Shown piece after piece: positions 1,009 to 29,546 of a DNA stretch of 42,931 bases. This DNA comes from a virus. Lineage: Duplodnaviria; Heunggongvirae; Uroviricota; Caudoviricetes. The stretch covers positions 1 to 42,931 of IMG/VR virus record IMGVR_UViG_2541047844_000013. One strand, written 5' to 3'. Below the pieces are notes generated by a model, which did not search any database, was not told the origin of the DNA, and was given only the letters and a program-made list of their open reading frames with translations. Within the stretch, counting starts at the first letter, position 1. Each line of letters starts with the position of its first letter. The position numbers and the translations under genes were made by a program.

Positions 1009-1083
1009 GTCCTCTTAGTTAAATGGATATAACGAGCCCCTCCTAAGGGCTAATTGCAGGTTCGATTCCTGCAGGGGACACCA
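1009..1083 (+). tRNA. argW: tRNA-Arg (anticodon CCU), prophage integration target
   Basis: 75-nt cloverleaf GTCCTCTTAGTTAAATGGATATAACGAGCCCCTCCTAAGGGCTAATTGCAGGTTCGATTCCTGCAGGGGACACCA; anticodon loop CUCCUAA; T-arm GGTTCGATTCC; terminal CCA. Confidence 0.9.
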
Positions 1084-2793: not shown

Positions 2794-4847
2794 GAAACTT
2801 CCCCATTGGTTGAAAATATGGCTCCTCCAACTCCAAGTGTATTTCGTGTTGTGCTCAACCTAAGAGGGCTGGAGTCAGAATTAGAATATCCTGTAGCAGA
2901 AATAAAAGATCCTCCACTAATAGTCAACTGCGGAACATCGGCTATATCTGAATAAGTTCTGTCAGCAACAGTATTATTTATAGCCACATGTGATCCAAAA
3001 AAACTTCTTATTGTTTGGTTTTTAACTTTACTTCCTTCAATGGTTATCCTACTACCACAGTCAGCAATAAATCCTGAATCTGCATCCAGCGTTGCATTCA
3101 TAAAAGAAGCTTCAGATCTCTCTACATCAATCCATCTAATATCTTTTGTGGGATTTGCACCAAATACATGACAAATATTAGAGTTAAACCTTACACCATC
3201 TTGGAGGTGCATTAATTTTTTTATATCTGTACCCCATAGCCTTGGAAAATTAACAGATGCTCCTGCATGGCAATCAAATCCCAACTCAGCCCCTGAGATA
3301 TCTACAGCCTTTCCTGAAATAACAGCACCAGTGTCTGCATTAACGGCTGTTCCACAATTGCGCATATCATTACCAGCAATATCAACACAACTCGCACCAT
3401 CAATACGCACACCAAGTGCACATCCATAAAAACCTTTTTCAATATTTGGTTCAAGGACTTTACCACTTGTTTCTGCATCACTTTCTTCAACGTCATGTCG
3501 TCTTGCATCAACATATGCTGTATGAATGCAGGTTAATCCACGATATGAGCAATGTATAGTTTTATGGTCGCGTATATTAACATTTGAACCATCTCTTACA
3601 TTCCATCCTATATAACAATAGCTTGCACTTGACCCCTGAAAATCTGCTTTAACATTATAAATACAATTAACTGACGCAACCGTACTCTCTGTGCACCGTT
3701 CAAACTTGCTTACAGGCATTGATGCCTTGACATTATTTACCAGTTGCAGGGAAGAGTATCTGCTATAAGAAAAATCACATACGTAATACCCTTCTGGCAT
3801 ATATGCAGCAACACTTTCCTCATCAGGAGCACATCCGGTATGATATGCACTAATTTTTGCACCAAAGCTACCATGAATTCCAACGTAGAACTTTCGAGCA
3901 CCTGAATACGGATAGAAATTAAGTTCAGCTTTTTGAGTTACAATAAATGCACAAACATCGCTATCATCTCTATTTTCTTCAATCTGAATAGCAAATACAG
4001 GACTTTTTGCTGCATCGCAAATGTAAAATAAATATTTGTATTCGTAATACGTCCTAACAGTTTTAGTAAACAAACTGGTATCAGAGAAAACCACTGAGTC
4101 TTCTGATATTATTTTAATCCATGATAAGTCACATCCTGCTGAAATTTCTATTTGCTCATTGAGCACAAAACCGGAAAGAATTTTAATTATGCAAAAGTCA
4201 ATGCCATTTTTCCATAGTGGACGCAGTGCAACAGCCGAGTTTAGAGCATCACTAATAGATTTAAAATTACCATATTCCCCAACTGTTATTGTGAATGCAT
4301 ACCTGGAATTAAATACTGCGGCACTCTCTCCAGAGTTAATAGCTGCAGATATCATGTCATAATTTGATATAAAATCATTTGGCGTGATTATTTCTGCGTT
4401 TTTATTGTGCTGTGTTCTAAGTTTTGAATTTACATGAACACTTTTAACTGCAATACGGGAGTCGTCAACAAGTATTTCATTACCCTCTGTTGCTAACTCT
4501 TGTCTTAACTGATCCGGGTCATACTTCAGCACATTCGGAAAATTGAACTGCTGTGCACCATACGCATCATAAACAGCCATAGAATGGCCTTGCTCAGTTA
4601 CGAATTTGGCAATCTGTCCGTTATATACAGGATAACCAGCAGCGTTAATGATGATTGGTTGCGAAACAGGAACGTGAGAGCCGTCTTCGTTCTCTACATA
4701 AACCTGAATCTGGTTTTCAGGATTTACCGGGTCAGTGTCAATTTTACCGATATAAATTTTGCCATTGGCTACGGCTTTAAAAGAACGCGCCATAGTGAAG
4801 AGTTGCGAAGGCATACTCACTACAACATTGGCTGTAATGTCTGTCAT
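2790..4847 (-). CDS. Tailspike protein: P22 gp9-like N-terminal head-binding domain fused to a different receptor-binding/depolymerase domain
   Basis: First ~110 aa ([43 protein letters not shown]...VLKYDPDQ) match P22 gp9 N-terminus from memory; the remaining ~570 aa do not resemble P22 gp9. Confidence 0.88.
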
Positions 4848-22541: not shown

Positions 22542-22617
22542 TGGTGCTGGTTAACGGACTTGAACCGCTACCCATTCGCTTACAAGGCGACTGCTCTACC
22601 ATTGGAGCTAAACCAGC
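22542..22617 (-). tRNA. Phage-encoded tRNA-like gene, predicted anticodon UGU (Thr)
   Basis: Minus-strand 76-nt sequence folds by hand into a cloverleaf: acceptor GCTGGTT/AACCAGC, D-arm GCTC-CAATGGTA-GAGC, anticodon loop CTTGTAA, T-arm AGCGG-TTCAAGT-CCGTT, discriminator A plus CCA. One mismatch in the anticodon stem. Confidence 0.55.
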
Positions 22618-22622
22618 ATGTT

Positions 22623-22697
22623 TGGCGGGACAGCGTGGGCTCGAACCACGATAAGAAGGTTAACAGCCTTCCGTAATGACCTTTATACGACTGACCC
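22623..22697 (-). tRNA. Phage-encoded tRNA-like gene, predicted anticodon GUU (Asn), degenerate D-arm
   Basis: Minus-strand 75 nt: acceptor GGGTCAG/CTGTCCC (one mismatch), anticodon stem-loop GAAGG-CTGTTAA-CCTTC, T-arm CGTGG-TTCGAGC-CCACG, then G-CCA; D-loop lacks the canonical GG. Confidence 0.45.
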
Positions 22698-24736: not shown

Positions 24737-24896
24737 CTTCTTCCTCGTGCATCGAGCTATTCGAATCGCTCATCAGCTCTGCACAGCAGTACTCACACAC
24801 GTGAACTTCCAGCACATGCAGCTTCTGACCGCAATTAGCGCACGTTAAAGCCCGCTCGACGCTTTGTTGTTCGTAACTTCGATTTGGGTCAATCAC
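24726..24896 (-). CDS. ninF: NinF (GTG start, overlaps ninE and ninG ends)
   Basis: Hand translation of the minus strand gives [56 protein letters not shown], matching lambda NinF; below the 60-aa track cutoff. Confidence 0.7.
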
Positions 24897-25075
24897 CTTG
24901 TTTTCCTCGCACGTTCTCTAAGCCACCGGATATCCCACAGGTGAGCCGTGTAGTTGAAGGTTTTTACGTCAGATTCTTTTGGGATTGGCTTGCGTTTATT
25001 TCTGGAGCGTTTCGTTGGAAGGTATTTGCAGTTTTCGCAGATTATGTCGGTGATGCTTCGTCGCTGTCGCCTCAT
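24893..25075 (-). CDS. ninE: NinE
   Basis: 60 aa; [52 protein letters not shown]... matches lambda NinE from memory. Confidence 0.85.
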
Positions 25076-25917
25076 GCCGCATCCTCAAAATTAAATCCAA
25101 GCTGACATGAAAATGCTTCACATGATTCAGAACACGAACCTGAATCATACTGTCGCATTGATGTCATTCTTGAGGCTAACTCATCTCTTGATATATCACT
25201 AAACAAGGCAATCAGTGATTTAAGTGTATTATTCCCTCGATACATAACCGGTTCCTTTCCTGTTTTTATTTCTGTATCAAGGATGTTGATAAATGCATCT
25301 GCAAGTTCTGGCTCATCCATGGCTGCCAGCGCCACCTTTTGCATACTTTTTTTTATGCAGAAAACACAATTACCAAGATGCTCCTGTATGCCAAGATCAA
25401 ATTTCTGCTCACTCCACCAATCAAGCACATCCTGTTTTTCAAAATCGCTTATATCAGCCAGGTACCGAAAACCATTAGCCCTTTTAAGCCTGTTTGGTTC
25501 ATCTGTGCGAATGCCAATCCATGTGATGTAATTTCCTTTCCCAAACTTTTCCTGACAATATTTGGCGAATGGAACAGACTTCATTCTGTCGGTACAGAAC
25601 GCACCGCCGATATATGGATGTCCGTATTTATTTAACATCCTTTTCCACGGTATAAGATCTGGACCAATATCATTGACACCTATCTCTTCATAACTACTGG
25701 CCTTCCCCATTTCTGGATTAGGTATTACACGAAGGCAATGTAAGTCTATTTTCCAGTTACTGACGATATTTCGGATGAACTCATATGTTTTAGGGTGCTC
25801 TGCCCCTGTATCCATGAAAACGTAATGCACGTCTTCACCTGTCTGTCGCTTTTGCTCCATTAGCCAGAGCAAATATGCTGACGTCCTGCCACCTGAGAAA
25901 CTAACGACATTTATCAT
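25072..25917 (-). CDS. ninC: PAPS-reductase-fold (PP-loop) protein in the ninC position
   Basis: From [22 protein letters not shown]...: SGGxxS PP-loop motif; C-terminal Cys cluster ([14 protein letters not shown]); start set at the internal Met overlapping the dam stop. Confidence 0.7.
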
Positions 25918-26441
25918 GCAGCCCTCCTGACACCCTGCCCGATCGCCATCAATGCCGCTTTGGATACGGTAGTAAACATCCGTCGAGGACTGATGAACGG
26001 TCGCCAAATCAGCAGCATGGAACCTTTGCTGTTTCCCTTCTTCTCCAGCACCGTCGATGGTTCGATAAAATTAATCCGTCCATCAGTGATGATGCGAACT
26101 TCGTCAACACTCTCCAGAGCCTTGCTGAACCATCCGACAGACATATCCTCTGGCACAAGCATCACTACCGTCTGTCGCTGTTGTATGCACTGCTCAGCGG
26201 CTTTTTCCACCCACGGCCTGATATTGCTGTACGGTGGGTTATTCCAGATTGCACCGTGACTTACCCACTCAGAATTGAGCGCGTCGTCGGCCTCAGTTAG
26301 CCAATGAGCGCACAGAGTGTTTTTGTCGCTCGCTGCCGAATCCAGCCAGAATCCAAACTCAATATCCAGTGCATCAAAAAGCCAAAGCGGCGTTTGCCAG
26401 CAGTCCTTGTCGTGTGCTGGCGTATTTGATTTGATAGTCAT
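25914..26441 (-). CDS. Orphan DNA N6-adenine methyltransferase (phage Dam family)
   Basis: NPPY catalytic motif (IWNNPPYSN); about 175 aa; no adjacent restriction endonuclease gene; start set at the Met immediately after the ninB stop. Confidence 0.75.
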   Translation of the reverse strand: MTIKSNTPAHDKDCWQTPLWLFDALDIEFGFWLDSAASDKNTLCAHWLTEADDALNSEWVSHGAIWNNPPYSNIRPWVEKAAEQCIQQRQTVVMLVPEDMSVGWFSKALESVDEVRIITDGRINFIEPSTVLEKKGNSKGSMLLIWRPFISPRRMFTTVSKAALMAIGQGVRRAA

Positions 26442-26884
26442 GCAGCCTTCCCTTTTCGTTGTGACCATTCATACTCTCGCCGGGAGTCATCACTCCACCG
26501 CACGTTGCGCTCTGAGCCGAACCAGAACATGATTTCGATAAGCTCAGTCATGCTGGCCTTTCGCATTTTGCTGGTACGCACGCCAAGCATAACAACGCCA
26601 CCGTCGATACCAGGCGCACTTCGTTGCTCCAGTTTTTTGGTCTTAAGCCACAGGGCAGTGAACAGATCTTTCCAGTCCTCCGGCGCAAGTCTCTCTCCAT
26701 GCCAGAGCACCTGACGCGATACGTCCTGCAATAACGCCCACATAAGGCGGTTTTGAGGATTGCTCCGCTTTGGTTCTTTAATGTGGACTTCGTGAGGTGA
26801 CTTGTCGTCGATCGGAAGTGAGAGTATTGCGTCTATGGCGTTGTTTCTGATTGCTTCGTTGCGAAGCATGTATATTTGCTTCAT
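26438..26884 (-). CDS. ninB: NinB (Orf) recombination mediator
   Basis: Similarity to lambda NinB in the central region (...QNR.LWA.L.DVSRQV.WHG...VKWSD...EW); start at MKQIYM with GAGGT Shine-Dalgarno. Confidence 0.75.
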   Translation of the reverse strand: MKQIYMLRNEAIRNNAIDAILSLPIDDKSPHEVHIKEPKRSNPQNRLMWALLQDVSRQVLWHGERLAPEDWKDLFTALWLKTKKLEQRSAPGIDGGVVMLGVRTSKMRKASMTELIEIMFWFGSERNVRWSDDSRREYEWSQRKGKAA

Positions 26885-26891
26885 CGTTACC

Positions 26892-27098
26892 TCAACTAAC
26901 AAAACGCCACGCCATTTTTGCTACAGCGACAGGCATAACACCGATAATCACCCAGACAAATGCAGCGCCAAACAACGTATACCATGGGTCTTTACCGTCA
27001 TTCACAAGACGAATGTAGCTATGCAGAACAATAAATAACGTCAGAAGAATCCATCCAACGCCAACGCATTTGAATGCGACGAGCATAAACTCAGCCAC
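26892..27098 (-). CDS. Small two-TM membrane protein, unknown function
   Basis: 68-aa ORF with two hydrophobic helices; between the primase-helicase and ninB (the lambda ren position). Confidence 0.4.
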   Translation of the reverse strand: MAEFMLVAFKCVGVGWILLTLFIVLHSYIRLVNDGKDPWYTLFGAAFVWVIIGVMPVAVAKMAWRFVS

Positions 27099-27174: not shown

Positions 27175-29067
27175 TTAATACTCCGTCACGTTTTCCTGTC
27201 GCCACGCCTCGTCATATTCCGATTTCGGCATATTGGCGATGTAGCTATATGGCGATCCTGATTCAAGTTGCAGGAACTGGTGCGATTGCTCGTCAAGGAA
27301 CAACGGGACGCCACCTTCCCAACCTTCGCCGTTACGTTGTTTTTCAAGCATCAAAACAGATGCCGGAGACGCCAGTACCTGTTCGTCCTTCTCTGACATC
27401 TTTTCACCACTCTGAACTCTCTGTAACGCTCTCTCGCGAGCCTTGTTACGCCAGATGATGAAAAGGTTGTCTGTCAGGTCTGTTATCGCTCCAGAGCCTT
27501 TTACGTCCATTTTCCCGGTTGGTTTTTCTTCGCTGTCTCCTTTTCGCGAGTGAGTAACGAGAATGACGTGGGAGTTTGTTTTGTTTTTGAAGTCGCAAAT
27601 CGAGTCAACAAACGCCTTCTGCCCGTTATAGTCATCGTCGCCTATGCCACATTTCATCAGGCTGTCGATGATGAATAACTGGATCCCGTATCGGCGGCGA
27701 GCGTAGTCGAATATTTCGATCAGCCTGTCGGCTTTCGCCGTTCCGGTCAGGCCAAACACCCAAAGTCTTTCGTCATAAAATTTAAATGCAGAGTCAATTT
27801 CCAGCACTGGCGGCATCTTGCAGCACGTCGCCTGACGGGTAAGGCGCTTAAGGAGAATACCAGGCTTCAGCTCAAGTGACGCGATGCACGTCTTCACACC
27901 CTGACGCATTGCCTCAAGTGCCATATGCCCGACAACCTCCGTTTTTCCGTGACCGTTCACACCATTGACCAGCGTCAACTCGGCCTCACGGAACTGGAAT
28001 TTATCTGCCAGAGATTCCCACGGTGGATTAAACAGATACTGCTGCTTGCCGTAGAAAGCGTTGATAGTGTCCTGGTAAAACTCTCGCGCGCTGTAGAGTT
28101 CTTCAGGATCGAAGTAGGATGCCGTGCCGATGTACTGCCAGATTTCATCCTCGGTAACACCGTTCATCAGGCATTCGTTGATGTCTTTGTACGGCAGAGT
28201 AACAAGACGGCAACGATGTTCACCGAGTCGGCTTGCGATTTCCCTTGCGGCCTCACGACCAACATCATCAACGTCCATCGAGATGAATATTTCCTCAAAC
28301 CTGTCGAGGTTGTGATACTCAAACTCAATCCACTGTTGCTTAGCACCTTTCCCGCCACCAAACGGCACGGATAACGCCGAGATGCCGTATTGCGCATAGC
28401 TCATACAATCAATTTCGCCTTCGCAAAGTACAACCGCCCTCACGCCAGCGTCCAGAGCCTGCCATCCGAACAGACAAGGTTCGCAATCACCTTCTGCCAT
28501 AATGACTTTCTTCCCGTCCGGGCGCTCAGTGCTGATTCGCTTGACCTGCAACAACTCACCATCGCGTTTGTACGGAAGCACCAGTGCATCAAGTTCTCGT
28601 TCTCCATTCCACACCTTGCCGCTGACAACCTCGTAGCGCTTTACGACTTCTGGCGATATGCCACGCGATTGCAGGTACTCAAGATGGGATTCTGTTCTGG
28701 TAACGTAGCGGGCGATTTTCTTGCGGTCAGGTCTGGAGAATTTCTTCTCACGTCTGGCATCGAAATGGTGATCGTCATCCTTGATACCGAGAAATGCTTT
28801 CGCTTCCTGCATAGCCTGATGCAGGTTAATTCCACGACATGCCATCCACAAATCAAGCATGTCACCGCCGTCTCCCTCAGCGAAATCAGCCCATTTTTTC
28901 TTGCCGCTAAGGTTGACCTTAAGGCTGTTTCCCTTGTCACCGTTGACGTTACCGGCAACCCACTCATGCCCCTCTTTCTTGCCGTTTGGCAACAGGTGCG
29001 GAGCCACCCTGTCAACCTGCGCCCAAAGCAGGTCGCTAAGTTCTGATGGACTCAAAGGTGCCTCCAT
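27175..29067 (-). CDS. Bifunctional DNA primase/helicase (TOPRIM plus DnaB-like helicase)
   Basis: 630 aa; Walker A GVNGHGKT in the C-terminal half; acidic TOPRIM-like segment in the middle; replaces the lambda P / P22 gene 12 function. Confidence 0.75.
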   Translation of the reverse strand: MEAPLSPSELSDLLWAQVDRVAPHLLPNGKKEGHEWVAGNVNGDKGNSLKVNLSGKKKWADFAEGDGGDMLDLWMACRGINLHQAMQEAKAFLGIKDDDHHFDARREKKFSRPDRKKIARYVTRTESHLEYLQSRGISPEVVKRYEVVSGKVWNGERELDALVLPYKRDGELLQVKRISTERPDGKKVIMAEGDCEPCLFGWQALDAGVRAVVLCEGEIDCMSYAQYGISALSVPFGGGKGAKQQWIEFEYHNLDRFEEIFISMDVDDVGREAAREIASRLGEHRCRLVTLPYKDINECLMNGVTEDEIWQYIGTASYFDPEELYSAREFYQDTINAFYGKQQYLFNPPWESLADKFQFREAELTLVNGVNGHGKTEVVGHMALEAMRQGVKTCIASLELKPGILLKRLTRQATCCKMPPVLEIDSAFKFYDERLWVFGLTGTAKADRLIEIFDYARRRYGIQLFIIDSLMKCGIGDDDYNGQKAFVDSICDFKNKTNSHVILVTHSRKGDSEEKPTGKMDVKGSGAITDLTDNLFIIWRNKARERALQRVQSGEKMSEKDEQVLASPASVLMLEKQRNGEGWEGGVPLFLDEQSHQFLQLESGSPYSYIANMPKSEYDEAWRQENVTEY

Positions 29068-29546
29068 GCGTTTCCTCTGCGGATTGTGGAAATTTGCATT
29101 TCACTCACTCCGTATTTAGTGGATAGTTCGCTTAGTTTCATACCAACAGAATTCCTGATATCAATCACATCAGTTTCAGATAGTTTTGCCCTACCATTAA
29201 AAACTCCCTTTGCGCTTTTCAGTCCGATGCTAAAAGCATGTTTTAAATTCTCTGAGCAGGTACACCATTCCAAGTTCCAAATGGCGTTATCCGATTTGTC
29301 GCCGTTGATATGATTTACTTCTGGCTTGCAATACGGATTTGGGATAAATAATTGAGCTACAAGACGATGAACTTTTAACGTCTTCTGAATCCCATCGGAA
29401 CACAAAGTGACTCTTAGATAACCCTTGTTATCCGGAGATGGATTCAAAAACCTGCCTCTTAAATGTGAATAAACACGACCGTCTTTGGTTACAGAGTATT
29501 TACCCTCATAACCAGGTATATATTCTCCAACTTCAAGGCTCATCAT
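29052..29546 (-). CDS. HNH homing-type endonuclease (NUMOD4 plus HNH_3)
   Basis: 164 aa; N-terminal GYEGKYSVTKDGRVYS (NUMOD4-like); HNH core HRLVAQLF...NHINGDKSDNAIWNLEW; stop overlaps the primase-helicase start. Confidence 0.75.
   Translation of the reverse strand: MMSLEVGEYIPGYEGKYSVTKDGRVYSHLRGRFLNPSPDNKGYLRVTLCSDGIQKTLKVHRLVAQLFIPNPYCKPEVNHINGDKSDNAIWNLEWCTCSENLKHAFSIGLKSAKGVFNGRAKLSETDVIDIRNSVGMKLSELSTKYGVSEMQISTIRRGNAWRHL

Follow-up and report, generated by a model that had tools for sequence, protein, structure and literature searches.

A Dam methylase gene next to ninC in a prophage nin region, a plausible two-gene counterpart of a fused phage protein implicated in escape from Dnd

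We analysed a 42,931-nucleotide stretch of virus DNA (Caudoviricetes; IMG/VR record IMGVR_UViG_2541047844_000013, positions 1 to 42,931; hereafter the window), in which two adjacent genes, dam and ninC, encode an orphan phage N6-adenine DNA methyltransferase and a PP-loop protein with the fold of 3'-phosphoadenosine 5'-phosphosulfate (PAPS) reductases. Seeing that NinC-type domains recur in one polypeptide with adenine methylase domains, and that one such fusion belongs to a gene pair with a published role against the Dnd defence system, we favour a composite explanation to which we assign roughly an even chance, namely that dam and ninC are two separable DNA-directed modules making up the split equivalent of a fused PAPS-Dam counter-defence protein. 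The locus probably represents a counter-defence pair of a known kind, not a new system.

NinC-type domains recur in fusion with adenine methylases

An exhaustive HMMER search with NinC returned 1,528 cluster representatives, and we examined the best 150 of these for domains. Among these 150, five were fused to a Dam domain of family PF05869 and one to a D12-class Dam domain (PF02086), with no non-PP-loop Pfam domain other than methylases fused to NinC. Both orders occurred, with Dam preceding NinC in representatives P0122 and P0126 and following it in P0121, P0127 and P0148, and P0128 joined NinC to an unclassified methylase-like C-terminus with an NPPF motif. These fusions are real, because P0122 belongs to a prophage within a genome contig of 160 kb and because intact copies recur in IMG/VR, where NinC-Dam fusions, six of them intact and one frameshifted, were present among 80 diverse NinC loci. 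In four further loci a separate Dam gene adjoins NinC or lies no more than 2.5 kb away. The frameshifted copy (L198:3501-5100) is a pseudogene form of a NinC-Dam fusion that is intact in another locus (L204). Further NinC clades at 85% and 70% identity to the window protein occur elsewhere; the 85% clade lies among RecT/SSB genes outside nin regions, and 2 of its 14 loci have a flanking Dam gene on either side of NinC while two more have MT-A70 adenine methylases nearby. Methylase fusions surfaced only in the exhaustive representative search, there being none among the 120 closest NinC homologs, whose longer members carry unrelated C-terminal extensions.

One fusion of this type has been described in Vibrio. 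The protein p0018 of Vibrio crassostreae phage 44E38.1 has 479 residues with an N-terminal PAPS-reductase and a C-terminal Dam domain, and placing p0018 together with p0019 in a sister phage allowed that phage to infect a host with Dnd (Piel et al., bioRxiv 10.1101/2021.05.05.442762). Taking the p0018 sequence from phage 34E29.1 (L148:3001-4437), in which the region is 100% DNA-identical to that of 44E38.1, we found that its N-terminal 278 residues form an entire NinC that shares 62% identity with the window protein and keeps every cysteine motif, that its C-terminal Dam domain (PF05869) is 37% identical to the window Dam, and that the gene sits in the phage early region near a NinG gene. Motif IV of this Dam domain reads NCPY, as against NPPY in the window Dam and the other fusions. 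A Dnd system can target GATC, and GATC carrying N6-methyladenine (G6mATC) can replace its phosphorothioate form (GpsATC) in resisting DndFGH (review PMC6435447). The searchable literature yielded no follow-up on the anti-Dnd PAPS-Dam protein and nothing that expressly connects lambda-type NinC with the anti-Dnd fusion.

The window Dam is a near-identical copy of a characterised enzyme

The dam gene (25914-26441, minus strand; 175 amino acids plus stop) is an allele of M.EcoVT2Dam. The original prediction had taken its product, from an NPPY motif, for an orphan Dam-family enzyme, and profile searches agree, with a match to PF05869 at E 2.1e-64 (216.7 bits, cut-off 28.1) covering profile positions 1-167 of 169 and a match to NCBIfam TIGR01712, "phage N-6-adenine-methyltransferase", at 262.1 bits (cut-off 97.05). 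The catalytic motif IV NPPY occupies residues 68-71 (26229-26240, minus strand; codons AAC CCA CCG TAC). No restriction endonuclease lies near dam, all neighbours within ~4 kb on both sides belonging to nin or replication families; the sole nuclease-like gene upstream is a NUMOD4/HNH_3 open reading frame (ORF) at 29052-29546, 2.6 kb off, which is not a cognate restriction enzyme. PADLOC labels the window protein an "orphan methyltransferase", and no solved structure related to it by sequence was found.

The window Dam shares 173 of its 175 residues with the Dam of the Shiga toxin 2 (Stx2) phage VT2-Sakai, M.EcoVT2Dam, for which a passage of PMC6602927, citing Radlinska & Bujnicki 2001, gives GATC as the specificity. 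On the strength of this 99% identity, the window Dam is predicted to methylate adenine in GATC.

GATC is itself about two-fold under-represented across the window (1-42931), with 96 sites where base composition predicts 166 and a Markov model 202, and such avoidance in a stretch that carries its own GATC methylase may bear some relation to Dam-/MutH-dependent or GATC-targeting defences. CTAG is nearly absent from the same 1-42931 interval (10 sites).

NinC is a conserved PP-loop protein of the lambda NinC family

The ninC gene (25072-25917, minus strand; 281 amino acids plus stop) encodes a protein of the lambda NinC family whose PAPS-reductase fold, proposed earlier from the sequence, is confirmed by PF01507 (PAPS_reduct) at 35.5 bits against a cut-off of 22.5; PHROG phrog_33262 matches at E 2e-112. 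With family E-values of 1e-64 and 1e-112, dam and ninC are not chance ORFs. Lambda NinC (NC_001416; nin290, lambdap64) is 56.3% identical to the window NinC over residues 1-277, or 99% of the protein.

Alignment of 38 homologs, down to 29% identity, revealed the conserved features of the family. The PP-loop SFSGGRTS, the ATP-pyrophosphatase signature, spans residues 6-13 (25879-25902, minus strand), its SGGRTS beginning at residue 8, with S8 and S13 invariant and G9 and G10 nearly so. Five cysteines are invariant, these being C108 (25594-25596, minus strand), the CxxC pair C184 and C187 within LGNCVFCxKKS (25357-25368, minus strand), which is also nearly invariant in the 150 representatives, and C262 and C266 of a C-terminal CSESC (25120-25134, minus strand). 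The last of these motifs falls in a low-confidence, probably flexible tail, where the predicted local distance difference test score of the structure model drops to ~51 (residues 261-270). The fold resembles those of TtuA, NcsA, ThiI and DndC/SspD, enzymes that adenylate nucleic acid and then transfer sulfur to it, and among solved structures related by sequence we found only weak N-terminal matches, to PAPS and adenosine 5'-phosphosulfate (APS) reductases over the first ~70 residues. The best matches in the PADLOC defence library, all confined to NinC residues 4-144, were SspD (E 9e-15), BrxP (1e-7) and DndC (1e-3), while the DndC model of NCBIfam was not reached. From these sequence features, NinC is probably an adenylating enzyme that acts on nucleic acid and depends on an iron-sulfur cluster.

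Published work offers little on function: phage PAPS-reductase homologs, lambda's included, were still listed as uncharacterised in 2024 (PMC11437467), and our search of the literature turned up nothing on NinC past "non-essential" and "deserves investigation".

The family also varies in length and position. In many homologs (P0075, P0124, P0127, P0148; L189, L191, L204) the PP-loop half and the CxxC half are separated by 60-100 inserted residues, which follow about residue 145, and five others (P0067, P0068, P0015, P0070, P0096) are extended at the C-terminus by ~90-140 conserved residues that match no Pfam family. Stx2-converting phages (L164-L176 of IMG/VR; H55-H59) have a third NinC allele group of 53-55% identity, encoded ~8-9 kb from one genome end in the company of Ead/Ea22 and DUF2303 genes; because this group sits outside the nin region, some Stx prophages combine a nin-region dam with a NinC homolog elsewhere.

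Gene boundaries are shared across the nin region, and dam and ninC assort freely

Every observed detail of the ninB-dam-ninC string with overlapping stops and starts, as first noticed from the sequence, was borne out by coordinates and junction reads. Positions 25072-26441 are the exact span from the ninC stop codon to the dam start codon, dam and ninC are two ORFs in different frames, in that order, and not one polypeptide, and direct reading of the junctions shows a four-base ATGA stop/start overlap between ninB and dam, dam and ninC, and ninC and ninE. A boundary repeat, GGCTGCATGA, matches exactly at the ninB stop/dam start (26438-26447, minus strand) and at the dam stop/ninC start (25914-25923, minus strand), such that two exact 10-bp copies bracket a dam cassette of 524 bp, and a dam-less locus (L020) joins ninB to ninC through a single copy. 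The claim that dam is inserted between ninB and ninC holds up, since dam-less relatives join ninB to the same ninC allele with the same boundary sequence.

A longer form of this boundary, GG(A/G)GGCTGCATGA, comprises a Shine-Dalgarno sequence, a C-terminal Ala-Ala, a stop codon and a start codon, and it was present together with the ATGA overlap at every nin junction compared (ninB/ninC, dam/ninE and dam/ninC). Because the boundary is the same whatever the partner genes, the coupling is generic nin architecture, and the argument that translational coupling marks dam and ninC as a pair fails, the same junction joining every combination of nin genes. The GG(A/G)GGCTGCATGA boundary is likely a substrate for module exchange. 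We rejected the boundary motif as an element enriched in the window, where GGNTGCATGA with one mismatch allowed was found 10 times against 14 expected and so does not exceed chance; only the two exact copies flanking dam and the comparative junctions are meaningful.

Surveying the 80 best IMG/VR loci that carry the window Dam allele, we found dam followed directly by ninE in 79 and by ninC in one. Loci with the 98%-identical ninC allele in IMG/VR were split between eight with dam upstream and nine running directly from ninB to ninC, and only 2 of 22 loci with lambda-type ninC had dam. Every combination exists in sequenced phages, gene order being ninB-dam-ninC-ninD-ninE in phage Oslo, ninB-dam-ninE in mEp213 and the Stx phages, and ninB-ninC in lambda. 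Across 5,426 complete Escherichia coli genomes, counting matches to at least 80% of a 441-bp internal dam probe, the dam allele was present in 1,540 genomes at 2,145 places; the dam/ninC junction occurred in 36 genomes, the window ninC allele in 154, and ninE at 3,539 places. These counts place dam in ~61% of ninE-bearing nin regions versus a dam junction at ~23% of ninC places, in a genome sample strongly skewed towards O157-type prophages. Within lambdoid phages, dam and ninC assort freely, and because each mostly occurs without the other, any cooperation between them is at most optional.

A counter-defence role and its alternatives

Under the composite explanation, Dam would be expressed from the early rightward operon and would methylate GATC on replicating phage DNA, while NinC would act as a PP-loop ATP-pyrophosphatase, probably dependent on an iron-sulfur cluster, whose nearest defence families (SspD, BrxP and DndC) install phosphorothioates. 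The likeliest role would be counter-defence against phosphorothioate-dependent and GATC-sensitive restriction, in which N6-methyladenine at GATC could replace phosphorothioate at GATC-type Dnd sites and NinC would borrow or jam the phosphorothioate machinery of the host (IscS/DndA, DndD/E or SspB/C). If it acts on phosphorothioates at all, NinC must borrow or sequester host components, because it comes without an ATPase, nickase or desulfurase of its own. Each module would also work alone and would be shuffled independently by recombination at the shared boundary. That NinC counters phosphorothioate-based defence, that it uses an iron-sulfur cluster and that it cooperates with Dam are all three things that we infer. 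Extended to the whole lambda NinC family, the proposal would be of a stand-alone iron-sulfur PP-loop enzyme that defeats phosphorothioate immunity (Dnd, Ssp, BREX type 4) in partnership with GATC methylation, an extension that we put forward tentatively and think somewhat doubtful. The partner would be the phage Dam if present and otherwise the host Dam. Vibrio hosts probably have Dam too, and for that reason the idea of host Dam standing in for phage Dam in NinC-only phages is speculation only.

Several observations weigh against the counter-defence explanation. The SspD match (53 bits) is confined to the N-terminal half of NinC, aligning residues 4-144 with profile positions 3-122 of 277, and ninC of lambda is dispensable for plaque formation and without an assigned function (PMC10695390). 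A P-loop nucleoside triphosphatase (NTPase) partner is required for known phosphorothioate synthesis (PMC12914056), and we found no NTPase of the DndD/SspC/BrxC type in the nin/replication region of the window. In Vibrio, the stand-alone Dam of the sister phage was insufficient against Dnd, and the swap moved p0018 and p0019 jointly and both domains of p0018 together (bioRxiv 10.1101/2021.05.05.442762); a tblastn search of the window for p0019 (DUF6475) gave nothing better than E 4. Lastly, the lambdoid phages show no positive association between dam and ninC (~23% versus ~61%). Beyond the window, an NTPase partner was likewise missing from the top families in 150 neighbour ORFs of ~62 diverse NinC loci, and neither the surroundings of ninC in the window nor the top families around diverse NinC loci included a sulfur-donor gene.

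The free assortment feeds directly into a rival explanation that we regard as a serious contender, though one that falls well short of probable, in which the two genes are unrelated nin-region "morons" brought side by side by modular recombination, Dam acting alone, as a shield from GATC-sensitive restriction enzymes or in tuning phage regulation, and NinC doing something else. This would account for the dam loci that go directly to ninE (79 of 80), for the same ninC allele occurring with dam in eight loci and without it in nine, for the differing arrangements in Oslo, mEp213/Stx phages and lambda, for dam in 1,540 E. coli genomes against its junction with ninC in 36, and for the identical repeats flanking the dam cassette. 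Harder to square with mere adjacency are the fusions, which recur in both orders, involve at least two Pfam families plus the unclassified NPPF domain, derive from unrelated prophages and metagenomes, and make methylases the sole non-PP-loop Pfam partners in the 150 representatives; nor does it accommodate the published anti-Dnd phenotype of a gene pair that contains one of them. The suggestion that dam and ninC form a DNA modification or anti-restriction pair, which was part of the original prediction, therefore stands in part: recurrent fusions in both orders, one of them tied to Dnd escape together with p0019, speak for it, and the coupling argument and the free assortment speak against it, such that on our analysis a pair at the window locus is plausible.

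The same fusions could be taken further, to a joint product. Dam and NinC might jointly place a novel compound modification on or beside GATC, for instance a base bearing sulfur or another substituent, or a phosphorothioate made by the phage, the methylase providing site recognition and base flipping. Fusion implies the same substrate at the same time, the NinC fold matches TtuA, NcsA, ThiI and DndC/SspD, the five invariant cysteines would fit, and three different adenine-methylase families serve as partners. We nevertheless consider a compound mark unlikely, given that NinC mostly occurs without any phage methylase, that neither a sulfur-donor gene nor an ATPase partner was found nearby, and that the Dam domain of the Vibrio fusion has NCPY in place of NPPY; to our knowledge, no unusual base has been reported in lambda, itself a ninC carrier. 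Least probable by far, and in our view very improbable, is that ninC is an auxiliary metabolic gene for a true PAPS/APS reductase (CysH) and raises sulfate assimilation in the infected host, as its database name, the PHROG category "auxiliary metabolic gene" and the profile matches to solved PAPS/APS reductases, confined to the first ~70 residues, might suggest. NinC scores 18.7 bits on the NCBIfam CysH model NF002537, against a cut-off of 154, and 16.7 on TIGR02055, against 235.3. It has no C-terminal ECGLH (there is no ECG[LI]H anywhere in the protein, and CSESC stands there instead), it keeps the full SGGRTS PP-loop (SGGxxS) that CysH lacks, E. coli CysH reading SSSFG at that position, and its invariant cysteine pattern differs. 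Phosphorothioate-enzyme models match it better than CysH does, and its gene context is DNA replication and recombination rather than sulfur metabolism.

Gene neighbourhood and other features of the window

The genes ninB, dam, ninC and ninE, all on the minus strand, belong to the delayed-early nin region of a prophage resembling P22 and lambda. Upstream, ninB (26438-26884, minus strand; PF05772, E 4.5e-48) encodes an Orf-family recombination mediator, and downstream ninE (24893-25075, minus strand; PF05322, E 3.2e-43) is joined by its ATGA overlap to the ninC stop; past ninE the order is ninF, ninG, ninH, a NinI-type phosphatase gene and Q, then tRNA-Thr and tRNA-Asn. Further upstream are a primase-helicase gene of the Toprim/DnaB type, an O-like replication gene and a gene for a homing-type endonuclease with NUMOD4 and HNH_3 domains.

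This last gene (29052-29546, minus strand; 164 amino acids) sits between the O-like gene and the primase-helicase gene and overlaps the start of the latter. HNH or NUMOD4 genes also occur at other nin-region junctions in related E. coli prophages (H27, H132), which suggests that mobile homing genes use the same gene boundaries. Between the primase-helicase gene and ninB, a strongly hydrophobic 68-residue ORF (26892-27098, minus strand) with no Pfam match may encode a small membrane protein. The genes for tRNA-Thr(TGT) and tRNA-Asn(GTT) (22542-22697, minus strand) stand just past Q, as in Salmonella phage Oslo, and tRNA-Arg(CCT) (1009-1083, plus strand), which adjoins an integrase-sized ORF at 1209-2402, probably marks the prophage attachment site.

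Significance and relation to known systems

Taken by itself, the locus is ordinary, its Dam being a 99% copy of a characterised enzyme and its gene order being known from Oslo and from 36 complete E. coli genomes. There is no new kind of system here, as Dam is known, NinC is classical, databases already contain the gene order and a phenotype has been published for the fused form. What the locus exposes is a link, in that the classical lambda ninC and the "PAPS reductase" half of a fusion implicated in Dnd escape are members of one family, which is repeatedly joined to adenine methylases; this link makes NinC function directly testable. If NinC does defeat phosphorothioate immunity, the dam-ninC pair would be a two-gene form of counter-defence and might write its own DNA mark. 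Two cautions for annotation follow, namely that NinC-type genes should not be annotated as auxiliary genes of sulfur metabolism, and that stop/start overlaps in nin regions are no evidence of functional pairing.

Compared with phosphorothioate systems, NinC would share with SspD, BrxP and DndC their PP-loop ATP-pyrophosphatase chemistry and is likewise rich in cysteine, but the known systems require an NTPase (DndD/SspC/BrxC), a nickase and a desulfurase, none of which adjoins the window ninC. M.EcoVT2Dam of VT2-Sakai/933W, a member of the PF05869 family along with T1 Dam and HP1 Dam, is likewise an orphan with no restriction endonuclease, and in VT2-Sakai dam also directly follows ninB with the same ATGA junction; there, as in most relatives, dam leads into ninE, whereas in the window it leads into ninC. 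Lambda NinC is of the same family and has the corresponding nin-region position after ninB, but in lambda no phage dam precedes it and ninD follows, whereas the window has dam upstream and no ninD, and the window NinC belongs to another allele group, of which 98%-identical alleles occur in E. coli and Salmonella prophages. Salmonella phage vB_SosS_Oslo shows the same ninB-dam-ninC order with overlapping junctions, though its NinC is a lambda-type allele (57% identical) and is followed by ninD. A further comparison is with the Vibrio protein, whose anti-Dnd activity was shown only for p0018 and p0019 as a pair, p0019 having no counterpart in the window; p0018 is one polypeptide running from NinC to Dam, whereas the window has two ORFs in the order dam then ninC, and a NinC-type domain and a PF05869 domain are present in both.

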